Source of the DNA: Betaproteobacteria bacterium | GTDB lineage: Bacteria; Pseudomonadota; Gammaproteobacteria; Burkholderiales; Burkholderiaceae_C | DNA: 64,000 bases | Direction of reading: 5' to 3' | NCBI GenBank assembly: GCA_043739385.1 | Contig: JAYUED010000008.1 | Location: 893 to 64,892, forward strand | Shown here: piece by piece, positions 16,153-24,025 of the stretch | Numbering within the stretch: the stretch's first letter is position 1 | Layout of the letters: each line of letters starts with the position of its first letter | The notes under the pieces: model-generated | What the model was told of the DNA's origin: nothing | Seen by the model: the letters and a program-made list of their open reading frames with translations, nothing else | Database searches by the model: none | Program-made: the position numbers and the translations under genes

Positions 16153-16347
16153 GAAGGGACTCCTATAAACACATGAGAAAAGCGATGGAGTCCCGAAAAC
16201 GCATTCAACTAACCTGAGAGACGCGAAACTGACCTTAACACCGCAAACTTTACCTGAGCGTTGAAACCCAGATTGACAGATTATGCTTCATTTTTTATAT
16301 GTTGGTGTAAAAATTCATAAGGAAGACGCAAAAACGTAAGCTAAGCC

Positions 16348-16539
16348 TTAATCTTCACGGTAGTTTCGCCATTCGCGCATGGCGTGTCGCATCGTCAAAA
16401 CCTGACGTTCGAAAAGCGGACAGGCTTTGCAGGCAAGCATATGGAATCGCAGTGCAAAGCGGTTGGATACGTTCAAGGCGGTGTCTTCCCTGGCAATCAG
16501 CAGAGCAGCGACTTCTTTGCAAGTTCGGCGAAATATCAT
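16348..16539 (-). CDS. Small soluble zinc-binding (ZAS, RsrA-like) anti-sigma factor
   Basis: 63 aa from the ATG at 16539, with an ATGA overlap onto the sigma factor stop. Contains C7-x25-H33-x3-C37-x2-C40 (HMLACKAC) and no TM segment. The track ORF starts earlier, at 16578. Confidence 0.75.
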   Translation of the reverse strand: MIFRRTCKEVAALLIAREDTALNVSNRFALRFHMLACKACPLFERQVLTMRHAMREWRNYRED

Positions 16540-17120
16540 GGCGCTATCCGGTTCCCAAACCAGTTGAGCTCCAGGCATTCACGTAAACGCAAACGAGCCC
16601 GGTGCAGTTGAACATACAGGTTTGTCGCGCTGAGGTTCATTTCCTTACAGATCTCTTCGGTTGACAGTTCCAGCCACTCGCGCATCAAAAACACCCTCCC
16701 CAAGCTAGCGGGCAGCGCGTCAGCGCAGGCTTCGAGTATTTTGAGAAACTGTTGCGAGCGTAAATCCTGCTCAGGGTTGCCCCAGTCCGACGGCTTATTG
16801 ATGAAATGTCCATCACTCTTGAACATCAATGCATCCAGTTCTTCTGAGCCATCGTCGCCGTCACTGGTGTCCATAGACACCTCACGCGAGCGAGAGCGTA
16901 GTTGGTCTATCACCTTGTGTTTAAGGATGCCGACAAGCCATGTTTTGAGTTGCGATTTGCTCTGAAACGCCTGCGGCTTACTTAGTGCCGCAAGTGTAGT
17001 TTCTGAAACGGCATCTTCAGCCCAGGAATCGTTTCGCAACTGCATGCGGGCAAAGCGCAGCAAGTAACCGCGATGGCTAGCGAGTTGCATTTCAAAGTCT
17101 GAAGCGGATGCGTTTGGCAT
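16536..17120 (-). CDS. ECF-family RNA polymerase sigma factor
   Basis: 194 aa with region 2 (ETTLAAL...TWLVGILKHKVIDQLR) and region 4 (VFLMREWLELSTEEICKEMNLSATNLYVQLHRARLRLRECL). Confidence 0.92.
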   Translation of the reverse strand: MPNASASDFEMQLASHRGYLLRFARMQLRNDSWAEDAVSETTLAALSKPQAFQSKSQLKTWLVGILKHKVIDQLRSRSREVSMDTSDGDDGSEELDALMFKSDGHFINKPSDWGNPEQDLRSQQFLKILEACADALPASLGRVFLMREWLELSTEEICKEMNLSATNLYVQLHRARLRLRECLELNWFGNRIAP

Positions 17121-17217
17121 GCGTCGGTGCGTCGTAGTTTTTAACCATCATCGCACAGCCAGATGTCAGGATAAACAGACGTAAAAACCTTTGAATTTCA
17201 AAACTTTTGCACACACG

Positions 17218-17257
17218 TGTAAGAAGTTGCTCGGTACACTGACCAATGCTCAACCAG
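17218..17257 (+). promoter_or_regulatory. Candidate ECF-type promoter upstream of the locus-1 precursor
   Basis: TGTAAGAAGTT is identical to 21851-21861. Both copies are followed 23 nt later by AACCAG, and both lie about 95-100 nt upstream of the precursor start codon. Confidence 0.45.
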
Positions 17258-17311
17258 TACCCTTGCTGGTGATGCTTATCTCTCAACCCATTCACCCTCT
17301 AGGAGTTTTTC

Positions 17312-17590
17312 ATGAACCAACGTGCCCTTATTGCTGCTGCTGCCGCTACTGTGTTGTCTTCCATGCTGGTTGCCTTACCCGCTGCAGCACAAGAGAAAGA
17401 AAAATGCTTCGGTATTGTCAAGTCGGGTCAAAACGACTGCGCTAATCTCTCTGGCTCCCATTCTTGCGCTGGCCAGTCCAAGATGGACATGGGTGTTGAT
17501 GAGTGGAAATATGTCGCTAAAGGTACTTGTGTCGGCATGAAAGGCATGACCGCTGACCAAGTCAAGATGAAGATGGACAAGAAAAGCTGA
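17312..17590 (+). CDS. bufA: DUF2282-type (BufA1-like) bufferin precursor peptide
   Basis: 92 aa with Sec signal [27 protein letters not shown], then [29 protein letters not shown]...KGTCVGMKG (4 Cys). An RBS (aggag) lies 7 nt upstream. Confidence 0.85.
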
Positions 17591-17653
17591 TCACAGTTTT
17601 ACTGCAAACTCAATGGTTGCTGAGCTCTTTTTCTCCAGCGTTAGCTTAGCCCC

Positions 17654-18589
17654 ATGAGTGCTTTTCCTGGCGCCACTCTTGTTCCTACCATCTCTTCTGT
17701 TGGTGCAGGTGTAGGTTGGCGCCATCCCCATTACGCGGCCTTGATGGACACACGTCCCGCGCTGGGTTTCATCGAAGTGCATTCTGAAAATTTCTTTGGC
17801 GCAGGCGGTGCTGCTTTGGCAGTACTACAAGAAGCCCGTGCCCATTACCCACTTAGCTTGCACGGTGTAGGTTTGGGTTTGGGCTCTGCCATCGGCATTG
17901 ACGACTGGCATCTTGGCCAGCTCGCTAAGCTGGTTGAACGCACTGAACCCTGGCTGGTAAGCGACCACGCCTGCTTCGCTAGAGGCCACTTGGCGCAAGG
18001 GCAGTCGACTCAGCCGATTCATGCTGCTGATTTACTCCCCATCCCTTTCACCAGCGAGGCGCTGGAAATACTTTGCACCAACGTGCAGCGGGTGCAAGAC
18101 CGCTTACAACGGCCCATTGCCGTCGAAAACCTCTCTGCGTACATCCGTTGGCAGGGTGATGAAATGTCTGAGCCGCAATTCCTTGCCGCGTTAGCCCAGC
18201 GTACCGGGTGCAAGCTGCTGATCGACGTGAATAATATTTACGTCAACGCGTTAAATGATGCACCCCCCGAAAACCAAGATTTAAAAATCAAAACAGCTAC
18301 AGCATTGCAGCATTGCAAACACTGGCTAAATGCAATACCACCCCAAGCCGTGGCCGAGCTGCATCTCGCCGGGCACACCGACTGTGGCGATATCGTCATT
18401 GACGACCATAGCCGCCGTGTGTGCGCCGAGGTCTGGTCGTTGTACAGCCACGCTGTCCAGTGCTTTGGCGCTGTTGCCACGTTAATCGAATGGGATACCG
18501 ACATCCCACCATTGCAAGTCTTACTGGATGAAGCTGCCCGTGCCAACCAATTTTCCAACATTGCTATAGCCATGTCGAGGCAGCTATGA
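17654..18589 (+). CDS. bufB: MNIO (DUF692) family enzyme, BufB-like
   Basis: 311 aa with [61 protein letters not shown] and [11 protein letters not shown]. Confidence 0.88.
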
Positions 18590-19440
18590 CCCTGCGCCAT
18601 AGTGCCACCCCTACGCTCGCATCTAGCCAGCAAGCCTTGCTGAGCACCCTATTTGCCGCAGGCCGTGGCGCTACCACTGTTGATGCTGAATTTATAGCTA
18701 ACTATGCTTATGGGGATTGCACAAGAGGGCTAAACGCTTATAAAAGCAACGCCCATAGCCTCGCCGAGCGCAGTTTGGCGTCTGTGTATCCCGTGCTTGT
18801 CCAATTGTTGGGCGATGAGAGTTTTGCCGCTTTTGCCCGGGCTTTTTGGCATGCTTATCCGCCTCAGCGTGGCGATTTGGCCCACTGGGGAGGCGCGCTT
18901 GCTGACTTTACCGACGCCAGCTCGCAACTTGTCGATGTGCCCTACCTCGCCGATGTCGCCCGCGTGGAGTGGGCCTTGCACCAGGCCGCTACCGCCCCGG
19001 ACGCCGATGCCGACTTGGCAACTTTGCACCACTTGATGGAGCAAGACCCGGCGGTTCTGCATCTGCGCTTGGCTCCCGGCCTAAAAGTGGTAGCTAGCGG
19101 CTGGCCTGTAGTCAGCCTTGTGAACGCCCACATCGACTCAGCCGGCCAAACGCCCAACCTGACTCGGGCCAGTGAGCGTTTGCAAAACGGTACTGCTGAA
19201 ACGGCGCTGATCTGGCGACAAGGCTTCAAACCCCAAGTTCGGGAAGCCTTGACTGGTGAAGCCAGTTTTGTGATCGCACTACAAACTGGTCACCCGTTGG
19301 GCGAGGCCTTGAGCGTCGTTTGCTCCACCACTGACCCCGACACTTTCGACTTTGCCCTGTGGCTACCCCAAGCCGTGTCCACAGGCTTGCTACTGGCTGT
19401 GGACTGCTTGATTCCTGGCAGTTTCGGCTCCACCCTTTGA
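18586..19440 (+). CDS. bufC: DUF2063-family MNIO partner protein, BufC-like
   Basis: 284 aa, with a 4-nt ATGA overlap onto the DUF692 gene. Its C-terminal half aligns by eye to the C-terminal half of the 22256-24025 protein. Confidence 0.75.
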
Positions 19441-19461
19441 TTTTTTCGGAGAACCTCCTTT

Positions 19462-19950
19462 ATGTACCGTATTTCACCTCCTAACGCCTTACAAAAAAAC
19501 CTGCAACGCGGCATCTCTCTCTGGAATCTGCTCAGCCGCGGCTTGGGCAGCCTGCAAGCACCCCTCAGCTTGGCAGCCCGGCTCTATGTTGCCCACGCAT
19601 TTTGGCTCTCAGGCCTTACAAAACTCCAGGACTGGGGTACCACGCTGGCGTTGTTTGCTAACGAGTACCACGTGCCTTTGCTGCCCACGCCCGTAGCCGC
19701 AGTGATGGGAACTACAGGCGAGTTGGTGTTGCCCGTGTTGCTGGTTTTGGGCTTTGGTGGTCGCTTTGCCGCCTTGGGCTTGTCCGTGGTGAACGTAATC
19801 GCCGTCATAAGCTTGATGGATATCGCGCCTGCTGCTCTGCAACAGCATGTGCTCTGGGGCACCTTGCTGGTTGCACTGGCCGTGTTCGGTCCCGGTGCAT
19901 GGTCGACAGAGCGCTGGGTTTGGCCTTGGGTGCAAGCCAAACTGCGCTAA
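19462..19950 (+). CDS. bufD: DoxX-family membrane protein, BufD-like
   Basis: 162 aa, 4 TM segments, with ARLYVAHAFWLSGLTKL. It is the last gene of the operon. Confidence 0.8.
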   Translation: MYRISPPNALQKNLQRGISLWNLLSRGLGSLQAPLSLAARLYVAHAFWLSGLTKLQDWGTTLALFANEYHVPLLPTPVAAVMGTTGELVLPVLLVLGFGGRFAALGLSVVNVIAVISLMDIAPAALQQHVLWGTLLVALAVFGPGAWSTERWVWPWVQAKLR

Positions 19951-19971: not shown

Positions 19972-20400
19972 ATGAGCCTGTCCCCAGAAATCGCCTCCCC
20001 AGAGATTGCTTTGCTGGCCGCGCGCTTCACCGAAATCCGCCACCACACCCTTGCTCTGGTCGAGGGCTTGAGCGCTGAGGACCGCATGGTGCAGCTCATG
20101 CCCGACGCCAGCCCCGTCAAATGGCATCTTGCCCACACCACCTGGTTCTTTGAGACTTTTGTGCTCGAACCCGCTGAATCGGCTCAGGCGACCGGCTTTA
20201 CGCCTTTTGATGTGGCCTTTCGCATGCTGTCGCGCCCCAGTTTCCCGCAGGTGTTGGCCTATCGCCATGATGTAGAGGTGCGCATTCACCGCCCGCTCGG
20301 TGGCCACTCCTGCGGAGCACATTCGCAGCAGTTACCGCAATTTTTTCCCGCCCTCTGCACGCTGGCAATTCGCCGGTTTGCGGCTGGCACATAACCTGTA
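19972..20400 (+). pseudogene. egtB: Relic of egtB (hercynine/sulfoxide synthase): N-terminal DinB_2 part fused out of frame to the extreme C-terminus
   Basis: Frame 1 reads ...DASPVKWHLAHTTWFFETFVLEP...[12 protein letters not shown]. Another frame at 20291-20400 reads [32 protein letters not shown]. The whole relic is about 430 nt, whereas a full-length EgtB needs about 1.3 kb. Confidence 0.7.
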
Positions 20401-20426
20401 ACTTTGTAACTCAAGGCGAATTCACC

Positions 20427-21440
20427 ATGTCTTCTTTGCGCCATAACTTAGCTTTGGTGACGGCTTCCACGAGCCCGGACACGCCTGTGCCCCCACCCCA
20501 CTTAACCACGCCGCAAGGTGATTTTGCCCACGATCTGATCGCCGCACTGTCTCACGCACCACACAGAATTTCGCCCAAATACTTTTACGACGCCCCTGGT
20601 TCCCAGCTGTTTGACCGCATTTGCACTCTGCCCGAGTACTACCCCACAATCACTGAGTTGGGAATCCTCCAGCGCCACGCTGCCGAGATGACAGCGCTAA
20701 TGGGCCCTTCCGCTGAATTGGTGGAGTTCGGCGCAGGTTCTCTTCAGAAGGTGCGCCTGTTGCTCGACGCCATGGATTCCCCTGCCCGTTACGTGCCCAT
20801 CGACATTTCCGGCGACCACTTGGCTGATGCTGCCCGCACGCTGGCACTCGACTACCCGCTGTTGCAAGTACAGCCGCTGGTGGCTGATTACACCGCTGCA
20901 TTGACCTTGCCTGCCAAGCTGCACAGCGCTGGGCAGCGCATCGGTTTCTTCCCCGGCTCCACCATTGGTAACTTTACGCCCGATGAGGCATTGCGCTTCC
21001 TTCGCATGGCCGCTGACGTGCTGGAGGGTGGGGCACTGCTACTGGGTGCTGACCTCATCAAAGACCCCGCCACACTGCATGCTGCCTACAACGACGCGCA
21101 GGGCGTTACCGCGGCTTTCAACCTGAATTTATTGGCCCGTGCCAACCGTGAGTTGGGCGCTGACTTTGATCTCACTCAGTTTGCTCACAGTGCTTTTTAT
21201 AACCCACCCCACCAGCGTATCGAGATGCACCTGATGGCGCGACAGCACCAAATTGTGCGTGTCTGTGGGCGCAGCTTTTCGCTGGCTGAAGGCTTCAGCC
21301 TGCATACCGAAAACTCGCATAAATTTACGCTAGATGGATTGCAGGCACTGGCCGTTGAAGCCGGTTTCACCCCTGGGCCGGTTTGGACAGACCCCGCCCG
21401 CCTCTTCAGCGTTCATTGGTTGCAAGCACCCACGCGGTAA
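20427..21440 (+). CDS. egtD: L-histidine N-alpha-methyltransferase (EgtD family)
   Basis: ISPKYFYDAPGSQLFDRICTLPEYYPT, FGAGS, FFPGSTIGNF, AYNDAQGVTAAFNLNLL and HQRIEMHL, colinear with EgtD. Confidence 0.88.
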   Translation: MSSLRHNLALVTASTSPDTPVPPPHLTTPQGDFAHDLIAALSHAPHRISPKYFYDAPGSQLFDRICTLPEYYPTITELGILQRHAAEMTALMGPSAELVEFGAGSLQKVRLLLDAMDSPARYVPIDISGDHLADAARTLALDYPLLQVQPLVADYTAALTLPAKLHSAGQRIGFFPGSTIGNFTPDEALRFLRMAADVLEGGALLLGADLIKDPATLHAAYNDAQGVTAAFNLNLLARANRELGADFDLTQFAHSAFYNPPHQRIEMHLMARQHQIVRVCGRSFSLAEGFSLHTENSHKFTLDGLQALAVEAGFTPGPVWTDPARLFSVHWLQAPTR

Positions 21441-21493
21441 AGACTTCCTAAAGACTTGAATACTTGTTTACCCACGCCTTAAAGGACTGTTTT

Positions 21494-21775
21494 ATGAAAG
21501 CTATTTGGAAAAATACCGTGATTGCGCAAAGCGATGACACCGTTCTGGTCGAAGGCAATCACTACTTCCCCATGGCTTCGCTCAACCGCGACGTCATTGT
21601 CCACAGCAACCACCGCAGTACCTGTGCTTGGAAAGGCGAGGCCAGCTACTATTCGCTGTTGGTCGATGGTGAGCTGAACCAGGACGCTGTTTGGTTTTAT
21701 GCCACCCCCAAGCCCGATGCCGAAATGGTGCGAGACCGCATTGCGTTTTGGAAGGGCGTACAAGTAGTTGCTTGA
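21494..21775 (+). CDS. DUF427 domain protein
   Basis: MKAIWKNTVIAQSDDTVLVEGNHYFP...TCAWKGEASYYSL...AVWFY, about 93 aa. Confidence 0.75.
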   Translation: MKAIWKNTVIAQSDDTVLVEGNHYFPMASLNRDVIVHSNHRSTCAWKGEASYYSLLVDGELNQDAVWFYATPKPDAEMVRDRIAFWKGVQVVA

Positions 21776-21850
21776 CTGGCGTTTGTCCTAGTGGAATAAA
21801 TGCACAAAAGCAGGCTTTCAAAAATAGTTTTCGGTTATTTTCATAATCGA

Positions 21851-21890
21851 TGTAAGAAGTTCACTCCCTAGCATGACAAACTGAAACCAG
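21851..21890 (+). promoter_or_regulatory. Candidate ECF-type promoter upstream of the locus-2 precursor
   Basis: TGTAAGAAGTT-N23-AACCAG has the same architecture as 17218-17257. It lies 100 nt upstream of the ATG at 21951. Confidence 0.45.
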
Positions 21891-21950
21891 TGCAGCACAA
21901 ACAATTGTGTTGCATTGGCCTTCAACCCCTTCATTTCTAGGACGATTTCC

Positions 21951-22238
21951 ATGAACACCACTTCCGTTAAAGCAGTAGCTTCTTTTGGCCTCACCGCCGC
22001 CATGCTCGCACTGTCCGCTGCCGCCTTCGCCGCTGACGCTCCCATGGGTGCGATGGGCAAGTCCATTGGCGCTAACGACCAAGTTCACTGCTACAAAGTT
22101 AACGACTGCAAAGGCACCGCTGATTGCAAAACAGCTGACCATAGCTGCAAAGGCATGAACACTTGCAAGGGTCAGGGCTTCAAGGCTTTGTCCGCTGGGC
22201 AGTGCCTGACCAAAGGTGGCACCATCTCCGACCTGTGA
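21951..22238 (+). CDS. bufA: 6-Cys secreted precursor peptide (BufA2-like)
   Basis: Signal MNTTSVKAVASFGLTAAMLALSAAAFA|ADAP. The core HCYKVNDCKGTADCKTADHSCKGMNTCKGQGFKALSAGQC has three C-K-G triads. The gene sits immediately upstream of an MNIO gene. Confidence 0.75.
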   Translation: MNTTSVKAVASFGLTAAMLALSAAAFAADAPMGAMGKSIGANDQVHCYKVNDCKGTADCKTADHSCKGMNTCKGQGFKALSAGQCLTKGGTISDL

Positions 22239-22255
22239 CCTGACCCGTTACTTCA

Positions 22256-24025
22256 GTGAACGCCAGCGTCTCGCTGACTGCACCCAGTCCAGGTTTTGGG
22301 CTGGGATTGCGTACTCCACATTACCCTGATTTTTTAGCCCAAACCCAGCGTTTCACCGGACTGGACTGGCTGGAAATCATCACCGACAACTTCTTGGTCG
22401 ACGGCGGTAAACCGCTGGTGATGTTGGAACGCATTCGCCGCGATTACCCCATGGCGATGCACGGCGTGGCGATGTCGCTGGGCGCACCTGGCGGCGCTGA
22501 TGTTGCCTACTTGAAACGCGTCAAAGCGTTGGCTGACCGTGTGCAGCCGCTCTGGGTGTCTGACCACTTGTGTTGGATCGGCCCTGGCCCCGAGCAGCTT
22601 TACGATTTGTATCCCTTGCCCTATACCGACGAGGCTGCCCGCCACGTCATCCAAAGTATCAGACAAGCGCAAGACATCTTGCAACGCCGTTTGGTATTAG
22701 AAAACGTGTCCAGCTACATCGCCTTCAATACATCGGCGTGCAGCGAATGGCAATTTTTAAGCCATATTGCGCAAGAGGCGGACTGCCTTTTACTGGTGGA
22801 CGTAAACAACATTTTTGTAAGCAGCGTGAACCACGGTTTTAACGCCTTGGACTATCTCGACGGTCTGCCCGCCAACCGTGTGCAGCAAATCCACCTCGCA
22901 GGTCATACCGACCGAGGTGACCATATCATCGACACACACGACCACCCGGTGGCCGCACCTGTCTGGCAGCTGTATCGCGAAGCGTGCCAGCGGTTCGGTG
23001 CTGTTGCCACCATGATCGAGCGCGACGACCATATTCCACCGTTGAATACCTTACTGGACGAATTGGCCGTGGCCCGTCGCACAGCCAACGAGGTGCTTTA
23101 CGCCACTGCGCTGGTCAGCCCTAGTTCGTATGCATCAAGCCATGGAAAAGACCAAAACCAAAATCATAAGATTGGCTTGCAGTGCTCTACAGATGAGCAC
23201 AGTGGGCTGTCAAAACTACAGCGAAACCTGTCCACCTACATTTTGAACCCTGCTGCCCTGCATGAAGCCACCCTGGCCCGTGCGTTGCTGCCTGAAAGCA
23301 AAGTGGATGCGGGCAGCGATTCGAATACTCCCGATACCAACGATACCAACCCGACAGGACAAGCCGCCCAGCGCCTAGGCATCTATCACCACGCCTACCG
23401 CGCCCGGATGGCGGAGGTACTGGCCGACAGCTTTGCCAAAATCAACCTCTACATGGGCAGCGACGCCTTCGAAGCCGAAGCCACCGCATTTGCAGTTGCC
23501 CATCCCCCCCTTACCCGTCGCCTAGGCCGATACGGCGCAGACCTGCCGAACTTTTTGGCAGAGCGCTACCCGCACAATCCCGAGTTGTTTGAATTAGCCC
23601 AGTTGGATTGGGATTTGCGCGAATGCTTTGACGGCCCCGATATCCCCGCGCTTGACGCCGCCAGTGCGGCCAGCGATGTGGCCCAAAGTTGGTTGACACG
23701 CAGTGCCCCGTTGCACCCTAGCGTGCGTCTCCGCAACCTCAGCACCAACGCTGTGCAACTCTGGAAAGCCATCGACGACGACCACGAGGTTCCCGCACCC
23801 GTCACGCTGGAGGTGCCACGCACCCTCTTGGTCTGGCGCAAAGGCTTGCAACCGCATTTCCAGACGCTGGACGCCGCCCCGGCACAGTTCATTGCCTGTT
23901 TATCCGAAGGCCAGTCCATCTGGCAAACCTGCGAAGCTTTGCCCGAACTTGCCGCGCCTGAAGCGCTGGGCAGCTGGCTCCAGGCTTGGTGGGCAGAAGG
24001 TTGGCTGCGCGCCGCAGAGTCTTAG
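22256..24025 (+). CDS. Fused MNIO (DUF692) - DUF2063 protein
   Basis: 589 aa with a GTG start. The N-terminal ~285 aa carry AMHGVAMSLGA, WVSDHLCW, LENVSSY, LLVDVNNIFVSS, IHLAGHT, IIDTHDHP and FGAVATMIERD. A Ser/Asn/Asp/Thr/Pro-rich linker follows. The C-terminal ~270 aa are DUF2063-like (RLGIYHHAYRARM...ELAQLDWDL). Confidence 0.85.
   Translation: MNASVSLTAPSPGFGLGLRTPHYPDFLAQTQRFTGLDWLEIITDNFLVDGGKPLVMLERIRRDYPMAMHGVAMSLGAPGGADVAYLKRVKALADRVQPLWVSDHLCWIGPGPEQLYDLYPLPYTDEAARHVIQSIRQAQDILQRRLVLENVSSYIAFNTSACSEWQFLSHIAQEADCLLLVDVNNIFVSSVNHGFNALDYLDGLPANRVQQIHLAGHTDRGDHIIDTHDHPVAAPVWQLYREACQRFGAVATMIERDDHIPPLNTLLDELAVARRTANEVLYATALVSPSSYASSHGKDQNQNHKIGLQCSTDEHSGLSKLQRNLSTYILNPAALHEATLARALLPESKVDAGSDSNTPDTNDTNPTGQAAQRLGIYHHAYRARMAEVLADSFAKINLYMGSDAFEAEATAFAVAHPPLTRRLGRYGADLPNFLAERYPHNPELFELAQLDWDLRECFDGPDIPALDAASAASDVAQSWLTRSAPLHPSVRLRNLSTNAVQLWKAIDDDHEVPAPVTLEVPRTLLVWRKGLQPHFQTLDAAPAQFIACLSEGQSIWQTCEALPELAAPEALGSWLQAWWAEGWLRAAES

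Follow-up and report, generated by a model that had tools for sequence, protein, structure and literature searches.

The window, i.e., the whole stretch of 64,000 nucleotides that was analyzed, corresponds to C8:893-64892 of an assembly of 4.30 Mb (207 contigs, 55% G+C). It harbors two bufferin operons, referred to as buf1 and buf2, and a gene pair for an ECF sigma factor and an anti-sigma factor (16348-17120), which is divergent from buf1. The sigma gene and the buf2 operon are separated by 4.7 kb within the same co-oriented cluster. The genes are as follows:

16348-16539, minus strand: gene for a cytoplasmic ZAS anti-sigma factor of 63 aa, whose ATG at 16539 overlaps the sigma stop codon (ATGA)
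16536-17120, minus strand: gene for an ECF sigma factor of 194 aa (Pfam Sigma70_r2 and r4_2)
17312-19950, plus strand: buf1 operon (Pfam/NCBIfam)
17312-17590, plus strand: buf1 DUF2282 precursor
17654-18589, plus strand: buf1 MNIO protein BufB
18586-19440, plus strand: buf1 DUF2063 protein
19462-19950, plus strand: buf1 DoxX protein
21951-24025, plus strand: buf2 operon (NF050166, NF050167)
21951-22238, plus strand: BufA2 precursor
22256-24025, plus strand: fused MNIO-DUF2063 protein

The sigma factor comprises regions 2 and 4 only and scored above the cutoffs of the NCBIfam models NF009173 (293.1 bits, cutoff 255) and TIGR02943 (231.6 bits, cutoff 162.2). Directly 3' of its gene follows the gene for the small soluble anti-sigma factor, whose translation contains C7-x26-H34-x3-C38-x2-C41, in line with the ZAS pattern C/H-x23-26-H-x3-C-x2-C, and which reached 52.2 bits against NF052368 ‘antisigmaE’ (cutoff 50). 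Both bufferin operons start with a precursor gene (DUF2282 or BufA2), followed by genes for MNIO BufB and its DUF2063 partner (PF10048, PF05114, and PF09836); for buf2, NF050166 and NF050167 scored 97 bits (cutoff 60) and 350 bits (cutoff 310), respectively. A scan of 16300-17400 for sigma-70 consensus elements found neither a promoter nor a terminator.

The sequence-only reading had pointed to an identical 11-mer upstream of both precursor genes, and its positions and distances were all reproduced. TGTAAGAAGTT is found on the plus strand at 17218-17228 and 21851-21861, starting 94 nt (ATG 17312) and 100 nt (ATG 21951) before the respective precursor; AACCAG starts 23 nt past each copy (17252 and 21885), and positions 16–18 after GAAGTT read CAA at buf1 and buf2 alike. 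The regions 5' of the two precursor genes, 191 and 175 nt long, have no longer word in common than this 11-mer. Since any shared 11-mer was obtained in only 143 of 20,000 mononucleotide shuffles (0.7%), the earlier estimate of a chance match below 0.01 is sound. With five copies in 4.3 Mb, including the two at buf1 and buf2, TGTAAGAAGTT is not a common genomic word. The remaining three copies (C63, C138, and C187), which lie at the end of an IS256-type transposase, in an intergenic region, and antisense to a gene, were rejected as regulon sites as they lack both a −10 element and AACCAG. The first of these (C63:4829) is located approximately 70 nt 5' of an IS256-family transposase ORF; it is probably part of the IS terminal region and was judged unrelated to the regulon.

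For comparison, we used sigma factor orthologues from 60 relatives, an additional 80 loci of Comamonadaceae such as Rhodoferax, Polaromonas, Hydrogenophaga, Ramlibacter, and Limnohabitans, and bufA2 orthologues. A motif of fixed geometry was found 5' of the bufA1 orthologues in 15 genomes, and the same two-block motif precedes the bufA2 orthologues in at least 12 genomes, counts that overstate independence because the orthologues are related by descent. Several of the motif-bearing bufA2 loci are unlinked to the sigma gene, i.e., located on other contigs or megabases away. Approximately 100 related Comamonadaceae loci yielded the two-block consensus TGTAAG(G/A)A-N14/15-(C/T)GACnnA, and the geometry of 8-mer and GAC is kept across genera with 50–72% G+C. 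The orthologues keep just the first eight bases of the 11-mer (TGTAAGAA), and positions 9–11 (GTT) carry 0.02–0.18 bits in a profile of 57 non-coding sites. The corresponding loci of the sister genome read TGTAAGAAGTT and TGTAAGAAAAC. The full identity over 11 bases is therefore partly luck. The elements assigned at both loci are listed below:

17200-17208, plus strand: A/T-rich tract AAAACTTTT, UP-element-like, 5' of the buf1 −35 element (A/T columns)
17218-17225, plus strand: buf1 −35 element, TGTAAGAA (orthologue comparison)
17240-17247, plus strand: buf1 −10 element, TGACCAAT, spacer of 14 nt (site profile)
17252-17270, plus strand: predicted buf1 start (A17252 or A17253) and leader hairpin (site profile, folding)
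21834-21847, plus strand: A/T-rich tract 5' of the buf2 −35 element (site profile)
21851-21858, plus strand: buf2 −35 element, TGTAAGAA (orthologue comparison, PWM)
21874-21881, plus strand: buf2 −10 element, TGACAAAC, spacer of 15 nt (PWM)
21885-21918, plus strand: predicted buf2 start (around 21885/6) and leader hairpin (site profile, folding)

This assignment differs from the initial one, in which GAAGTT-N15/16-CAA was compared to sigmaE-type promoters. We rejected GAAGTT-N15/16-CAA as the core: the orthologues keep TGTAAG(G/A)A and GAC, and bases 9–11 of the 11-mer contribute close to 0 bits. The −35 element was thus misplaced, whereas the −10 element had been located roughly, CAA being its tail; the block (C/T)GACnnA spans 17240-17246 at buf1 and 21874-21880 at buf2. 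The consensus was built from 28 and later from 57 sites; as the sites picked for training of the position weight matrix (PWM) were required to contain the TGTAA core and G(A/T)C at −10, these bases are invariant in the PWM in part by construction. The 57-site profile further revealed an A/T tract at −17 to −11 from TGTAAG (columns with 54–77% A/T, at loci of 50–72% G+C), a conserved A in position 7 of the −10 block, and a moderately conserved A(A)CC 12–15 nt past the first −10 base. Based on these comparisons, the 11-mer is the front part (−35) of a predicted stress-sigma-factor promoter, and we regard the shared motif as real and functional.

AACCAG coincides with the predicted start region and also forms the 5' arm of a leader hairpin. 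At buf1, 17253-17259 pairs with 17264-17270, and at buf2, 21887-21900 pairs with 21905-21918 in a stem of 14 bp (−23.5 kcal/mol, z = −4.67). At 50 of 58 external sites, pairing begins at a distance of 0–3 nt from the predicted start. Stems of 6 bp whose 5' arm lies 2–8 nt past the −10 element were found at 34 of 57 sites, compared to 16.9 ± 3.1 (maximum 25) for shuffled tails. The arms themselves vary among genomes (AACCAG/CTGGTT, AACCGG/CCGGTT, and TATCAG/CTGATA). Stem-loops at the 5' terminus are known to stabilize mRNAs, and the leader hairpin may have this role here as well.

To define the regulon, the PWM derived from 28 orthologous sites, with sigma-internal sites left out of its construction, was run over the 4.3-Mb assembly. 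Seven sites exceeded the best score from shuffled genomes (20.2), all of them functionally coherent:

16649-16620, minus strand: inside the sigma gene (25.4)
contig C103: inside a second sigma gene (25.4)
buf2 (23.1)
contig C165: 5' of a gene pair for a thioredoxin and a DsbD_TM/CcdA protein (23.1)
contig C1: 5' of msrP-msrQ (21.8)
buf1 (21.6)
contig C103: bufA1 (20.4)

Sites with scores below approximately 20, which fall into the shuffled range, are not claimed; among these are sites on C7, C180, C34, C202 (5' of a DUF1223-like gene), and C150 (5' of a gene for a DedA-fused oxidoreductase). The region between the two bufferin operons (19972-21775) contains a DinB_2 fragment, a gene for an EgtD-like histidine methyltransferase, and a DUF427 gene; the genome scan gave no PWM match of ≥ 16 in this region, and transcription from the buf1 promoter may extend into these genes. 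Regarding msrP, a site 50–135 nt upstream was identified in 15 of 17 genomes with a sigma orthologue, in contrast to around three to five of 12 genomes without one, and a Limnohabitans locus carries a site 5' of periplasmic msrB-msrA (L111). As a further observation, many Comamonadaceae loci (L064, L085, L096, and others) harbor a gene for a TlpA/Redoxin-type periplasmic thioredoxin (C-A-V-C) between the sigma gene and bufA1. At these loci, the thioredoxin gene and bufA1 have separate sites, with the first −35 element 10–25 nt from the sigma start codon. In summary, sites precede the DoxX/MNIO/DUF2063 operon and methionine sulfoxide reductase genes, and their positions therefore predict a regulon of bufferins plus periplasmic methionine sulfoxide and thiol repair functions, with membership resting on the sites themselves.

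The site within the sigma gene, which tied for the top score genome-wide (25.4; shuffled maximum 20.2), deserves closer attention. Its position is as follows:

16649-16620, minus strand: promoter-like site TGTAAGGAAATGAACCTCAGCGCGACAAAC in the sigma region 4.2 codons C158-K-E...T166-N (PWM, synonymous conservation)

The site is located approximately 110 nt 5' of the anti-sigma ATG, and the start predicted from it, near 16615, is approximately 76 nt 5' of this codon. A predicted promoter of the sigma factor's own consensus lies within its own coding sequence and 5' of the anti-sigma gene, which is the arrangement of rseA P3. Codon usage among the orthologues follows the site: Cys158 is encoded by TGT in 20/22 and 76/78 orthologues (96/100), despite a GC3 of up to 0.97, whereas the control residue Cys182 of the same genes is encoded by TGC in 19/22 and 67/78 (86/100). 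Lys159 is AAG in 22/22 sequences of the codon alignment. In the same set, the variable residue before Thr166 has a G-ending codon (CG, or AG in two), and a few loci of the 78-locus set have T or C in this codon position. In the two exceptions, the Polaromonas MAGs L097 and L120, all three synonymous positions are changed (TGC AAA ... CCC ACC); both carry CGTAAGA-N14-CGAC together with an A/T tract in the spacer immediately 5' of an anti-sigma gene (L097, 2054-2617; L120, 1495-1890). In L097, the sigma gene is followed by two tandem ZAS anti-sigma genes, and the intergenic CGTAAGA-N14-CGAC belongs to the second. On the sigma strand, no site was found within 350 nt 5' of the sigma gene at 59 loci, even with a relaxed pattern. 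From this codon alignment, we conclude that the predicted site is kept by synonymous codon choice. It is probably a sigma-dependent promoter of the anti-sigma gene and would thereby establish negative feedback. For the Comamonadaceae in general, we lean towards a purely negative feedback, in which the sigma gene lacks a promoter of its own type and the site in region 4.2 would drive only the anti-sigma gene, being kept by purifying synonymous selection and replaced in the spacer on decay.

Taken together, it is very probable that the −35 element of an ECF promoter is part of the 11-mer, and that an MseR-type regulon comprises buf1, buf2, msrPQ, and the thioredoxin/CcdA pair, along with the internal anti-sigma promoter. 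In the proposed circuit, the ECF sigma factor would be held by the zinc-binding ZAS anti-sigma factor until thiol-reactive, oxidative, or copper stress leads to its release, as suggested by analogy with MseR, HrsE, and RsrA. Free sigma factor would then transcribe buf1, buf2, msrPQ, and the genes for the periplasmic thioredoxin/CcdA pair, with transcripts of the bufferin loci presumably starting at A(A)CC, which would double as the 5' arm of the leader hairpin. The promoter copy inside the sigma gene would most likely add sigma-dependent transcription of the anti-sigma gene and close a negative feedback loop, while the sigma gene itself appears to lack a canonical site upstream. The proposal of a single ECF regulon made by the sequence-only reading is thus retained as far as a shared ECF-type promoter is concerned, for which conservation among orthologues and the mapped promoters of Neisseria and Caulobacter argue, and has been corrected in its parsing of the promoter. 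On sequence grounds, one ECF-type promoter would be common to both bufferin loci and belong to the regulon of the adjacent type of ECF sigma factor; that the sigma factor encoded at 16536-17120 itself drives both loci is suggested by analogy.

This last point leads to the strongest of the alternatives, albeit an unlikely one: the promoter is a true ECF promoter, but transcription of one locus or of both depends on another sigma factor, either the paralogue on contig C103 or an ECF factor of similar specificity. The factor encoded at 16536-17120 would then not be the sole or true regulator of buf2. C103, a contig of 1551 bp outside the window, encodes a second ECF sigma factor (63% identical) with a ZAS anti-sigma factor and a divergent DUF2282 precursor (bufA1); the latter is preceded by the promoter TGTAAGAAAAGCAGGTGTCACCAGACCAAT, which contains the motif, and the sigma gene likewise carries the internal site. 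Its best nucleotide match is to another Burkholderiales MAG (88%), its G+C content is near that of the genome, and there is no overlap with other contigs. C103 may therefore represent either a third bufferin locus and paralogue or a contaminant of the bin; if it is real, the two sigma factors probably cross-talk. The possibility that this short contig is foreign to the organism weakens it as a competitor. A second argument for another sigma factor comes from a genome of the same genus (G003; loci L042 and L138), which has strong sites 5' of bufA2 (22.3) and msrP (25.0), although a search of this genome with E ≤ 1e−20 found no sigma orthologue; either the assembly lacks this gene, or a more distant ECF factor of the same specificity has taken its place. 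However, a further genome of the genus (G001) has a single sigma match and carries the motif at both loci, and in the window, buf2 is only 4.7 kb away from the sigma gene within its co-oriented cluster. The adjacent sigma factor is the more probable driver; given the second set on C103, either of the two sigma factors may act at a given promoter.

Much less credible is a role of the shared sequence as the operator of a classical metal- or redox-responsive repressor or activator. In principle, a word conserved upstream of co-regulated genes could represent an operator, but the motif consists of two blocks that are asymmetric and keep a spacing of 14–15 nt, shows no dyad symmetry, and always faces the gene. 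Moreover, it is preceded by an A/T tract and followed by a start-like A(A)CC, it matches ECF promoters of homologous systems that were mapped by 5'RACE, and its presence tracks the sigma gene. Equally improbable is that the 11-mer is a functionless remnant of a recent upstream duplication or a chance match, since, although paralogy of two bufferin operons is conceivable and bases 9–11 do seem to match by chance, the spacers differ in length, spacers and flanks are unrelated, a shared 11-mer arises in only 0.7% of shuffles, and the 8-mer and GAC are held in place across genera of widely differing G+C content (50–72%).

With the ECF promoter as the preferred reading, the significance of the locus can be outlined. 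The basic circuit, in which a sigma factor controls bufferin operons and repair genes, is already known from Neisseria and Caulobacter. Bufferins, which were described only recently, form a very widespread class of copper-binding RiPPs. Their regulation is poorly defined outside Caulobacter, and the window locus together with approximately 100 relatives supplies a testable promoter consensus for the ZAS-controlled branch. This consensus can be used for regulon annotation in Comamonadaceae genomes, and the predicted regulon links both bufferin types with the periplasmic repair genes msrPQ and thioredoxin/CcdA. A promoter located within the codons of the sigma gene itself would be a modestly novel feature. 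If it holds true, synonymous changes in the sigma gene should abolish the anti-sigma feedback while leaving both proteins unaltered.

The closest known systems are sigmaE (Ecf)/MseR of Neisseria meningitidis/gonorrhoeae (NMB2144/NMB2145) and RpoE2/HrsE of H. influenzae, which is of the same type (PMC7907618); like the pair in the window, they have a cytoplasmic HxxxCxxC anti-sigma factor of 63–67 aa encoded directly 3' of the sigma gene. For Neisseria sigmaE, Hopman et al. described a −35 element GTMAGBWTT, a −10 element CGTCTAAH, an A/T-rich UP element farther upstream, and a conserved A approximately 6 nt past the −10 element as the start. This sigma factor, whose anti-sigma factor is the 67-aa ZAS protein MseR, controls an operon reaching from DoxX to rpoE-mseR as well as msrAB (PMC2893595). 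The window motif matches the mapped Neisseria promoter GTAAGGTT...CGTCTAA, with a GTAAG-type −35 element, CG(T/A)CnAA at −10, and a UP tract in common (compared to PMC2893595); likewise, an A a few nucleotides downstream is the start, which is a prediction in our case. Both regulons comprise a DoxX/DUF692(MNIO)/DUF2063 operon and methionine sulfoxide repair genes, again predicted from the sites for the window. The two systems differ in that a single autoregulated operon comprises the MNIO genes together with rpoE and mseR in Neisseria, whereas here sigma and anti-sigma genes are divergent from buf1, the sigma gene has no canonical site upstream, and the anti-sigma gene seems to own a promoter inside the sigma gene. 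For the Neisseria ecf gene, the main text of PMC4176332 reports no internal TSS. In addition, the −10 element contains GAC instead of GTC, msrPQ takes the place of msrAB, and the predicted regulon is extended by a BufA2-type operon.

This extension resembles sigmaF-NrsF of Caulobacter crescentus/vibrioides, where one ECF sigma factor encoded beside buf1 serves buf1, an unlinked or separate buf2, and YedY/MsrP with the same promoter architecture. In Caulobacter, GTAACC-N16-CGAA was determined by 5'RACE upstream of bufA1 (CC3254), buf2 (CC2907), and the yedY homologue (PMC3511200), and both bufferin operons were reported to be controlled by SigF (PMC11626156). In contrast to the window, sigF carries the motif upstream (positive autoregulation), the −35 element reads GTAACC rather than GTAAGG, and the anti-sigma factor is the six-helix membrane protein NrsF (DUF1109, ECF16) instead of a soluble ZAS peptide. 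The 63-aa peptide of the window has no Pfam match, i.e., none to DUF1109/PF06532, and no room for transmembrane segments, let alone six, and the system, although it would work like sigmaF, is therefore not a member of sigmaF/ECF16. In Cupriavidus metallidurans, it was not possible to show that the gig operon depends on RpoQ (PMC13492112), which we counted against the window circuit. The consensus given there for ECF16 (RpoQ), −35 AATTCG and −10 GGTTAC (PMC13492112, Table 4), resembles the sigmaF promoter of Caulobacter, GTAACC-N16-CGAA(TT), in reverse complement, and such a reversal might explain why no RpoQ-type promoter was detected before gig or rpoQ.

A parallel to the internal site is rseA P3 of E. 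coli, which according to Rhodius 2006, as cited in PMC8595263, is sigmaE-dependent and located inside rpoE, 228 nt 5' of rseA. As far as this account goes, both cases place a promoter of the sigma factor in its own coding region, where it serves the downstream anti-sigma gene in negative feedback, which is a prediction for the window. Going by the same account, the E. coli system differs in belonging to the ECF02 family, in its membrane anti-sigma factor RseA, and in a coexisting sigmaE-dependent rpoE promoter; in the window, the site overlaps the codons of the region 4.2 helix-turn-helix and appears to be the sole sigma-type site of the sigma/anti-sigma unit. Overall, the predicted window system would share the anti-sigma type and the promoter with the Neisseria branch, and the logic of one sigma factor for two bufferin operons with Caulobacter.
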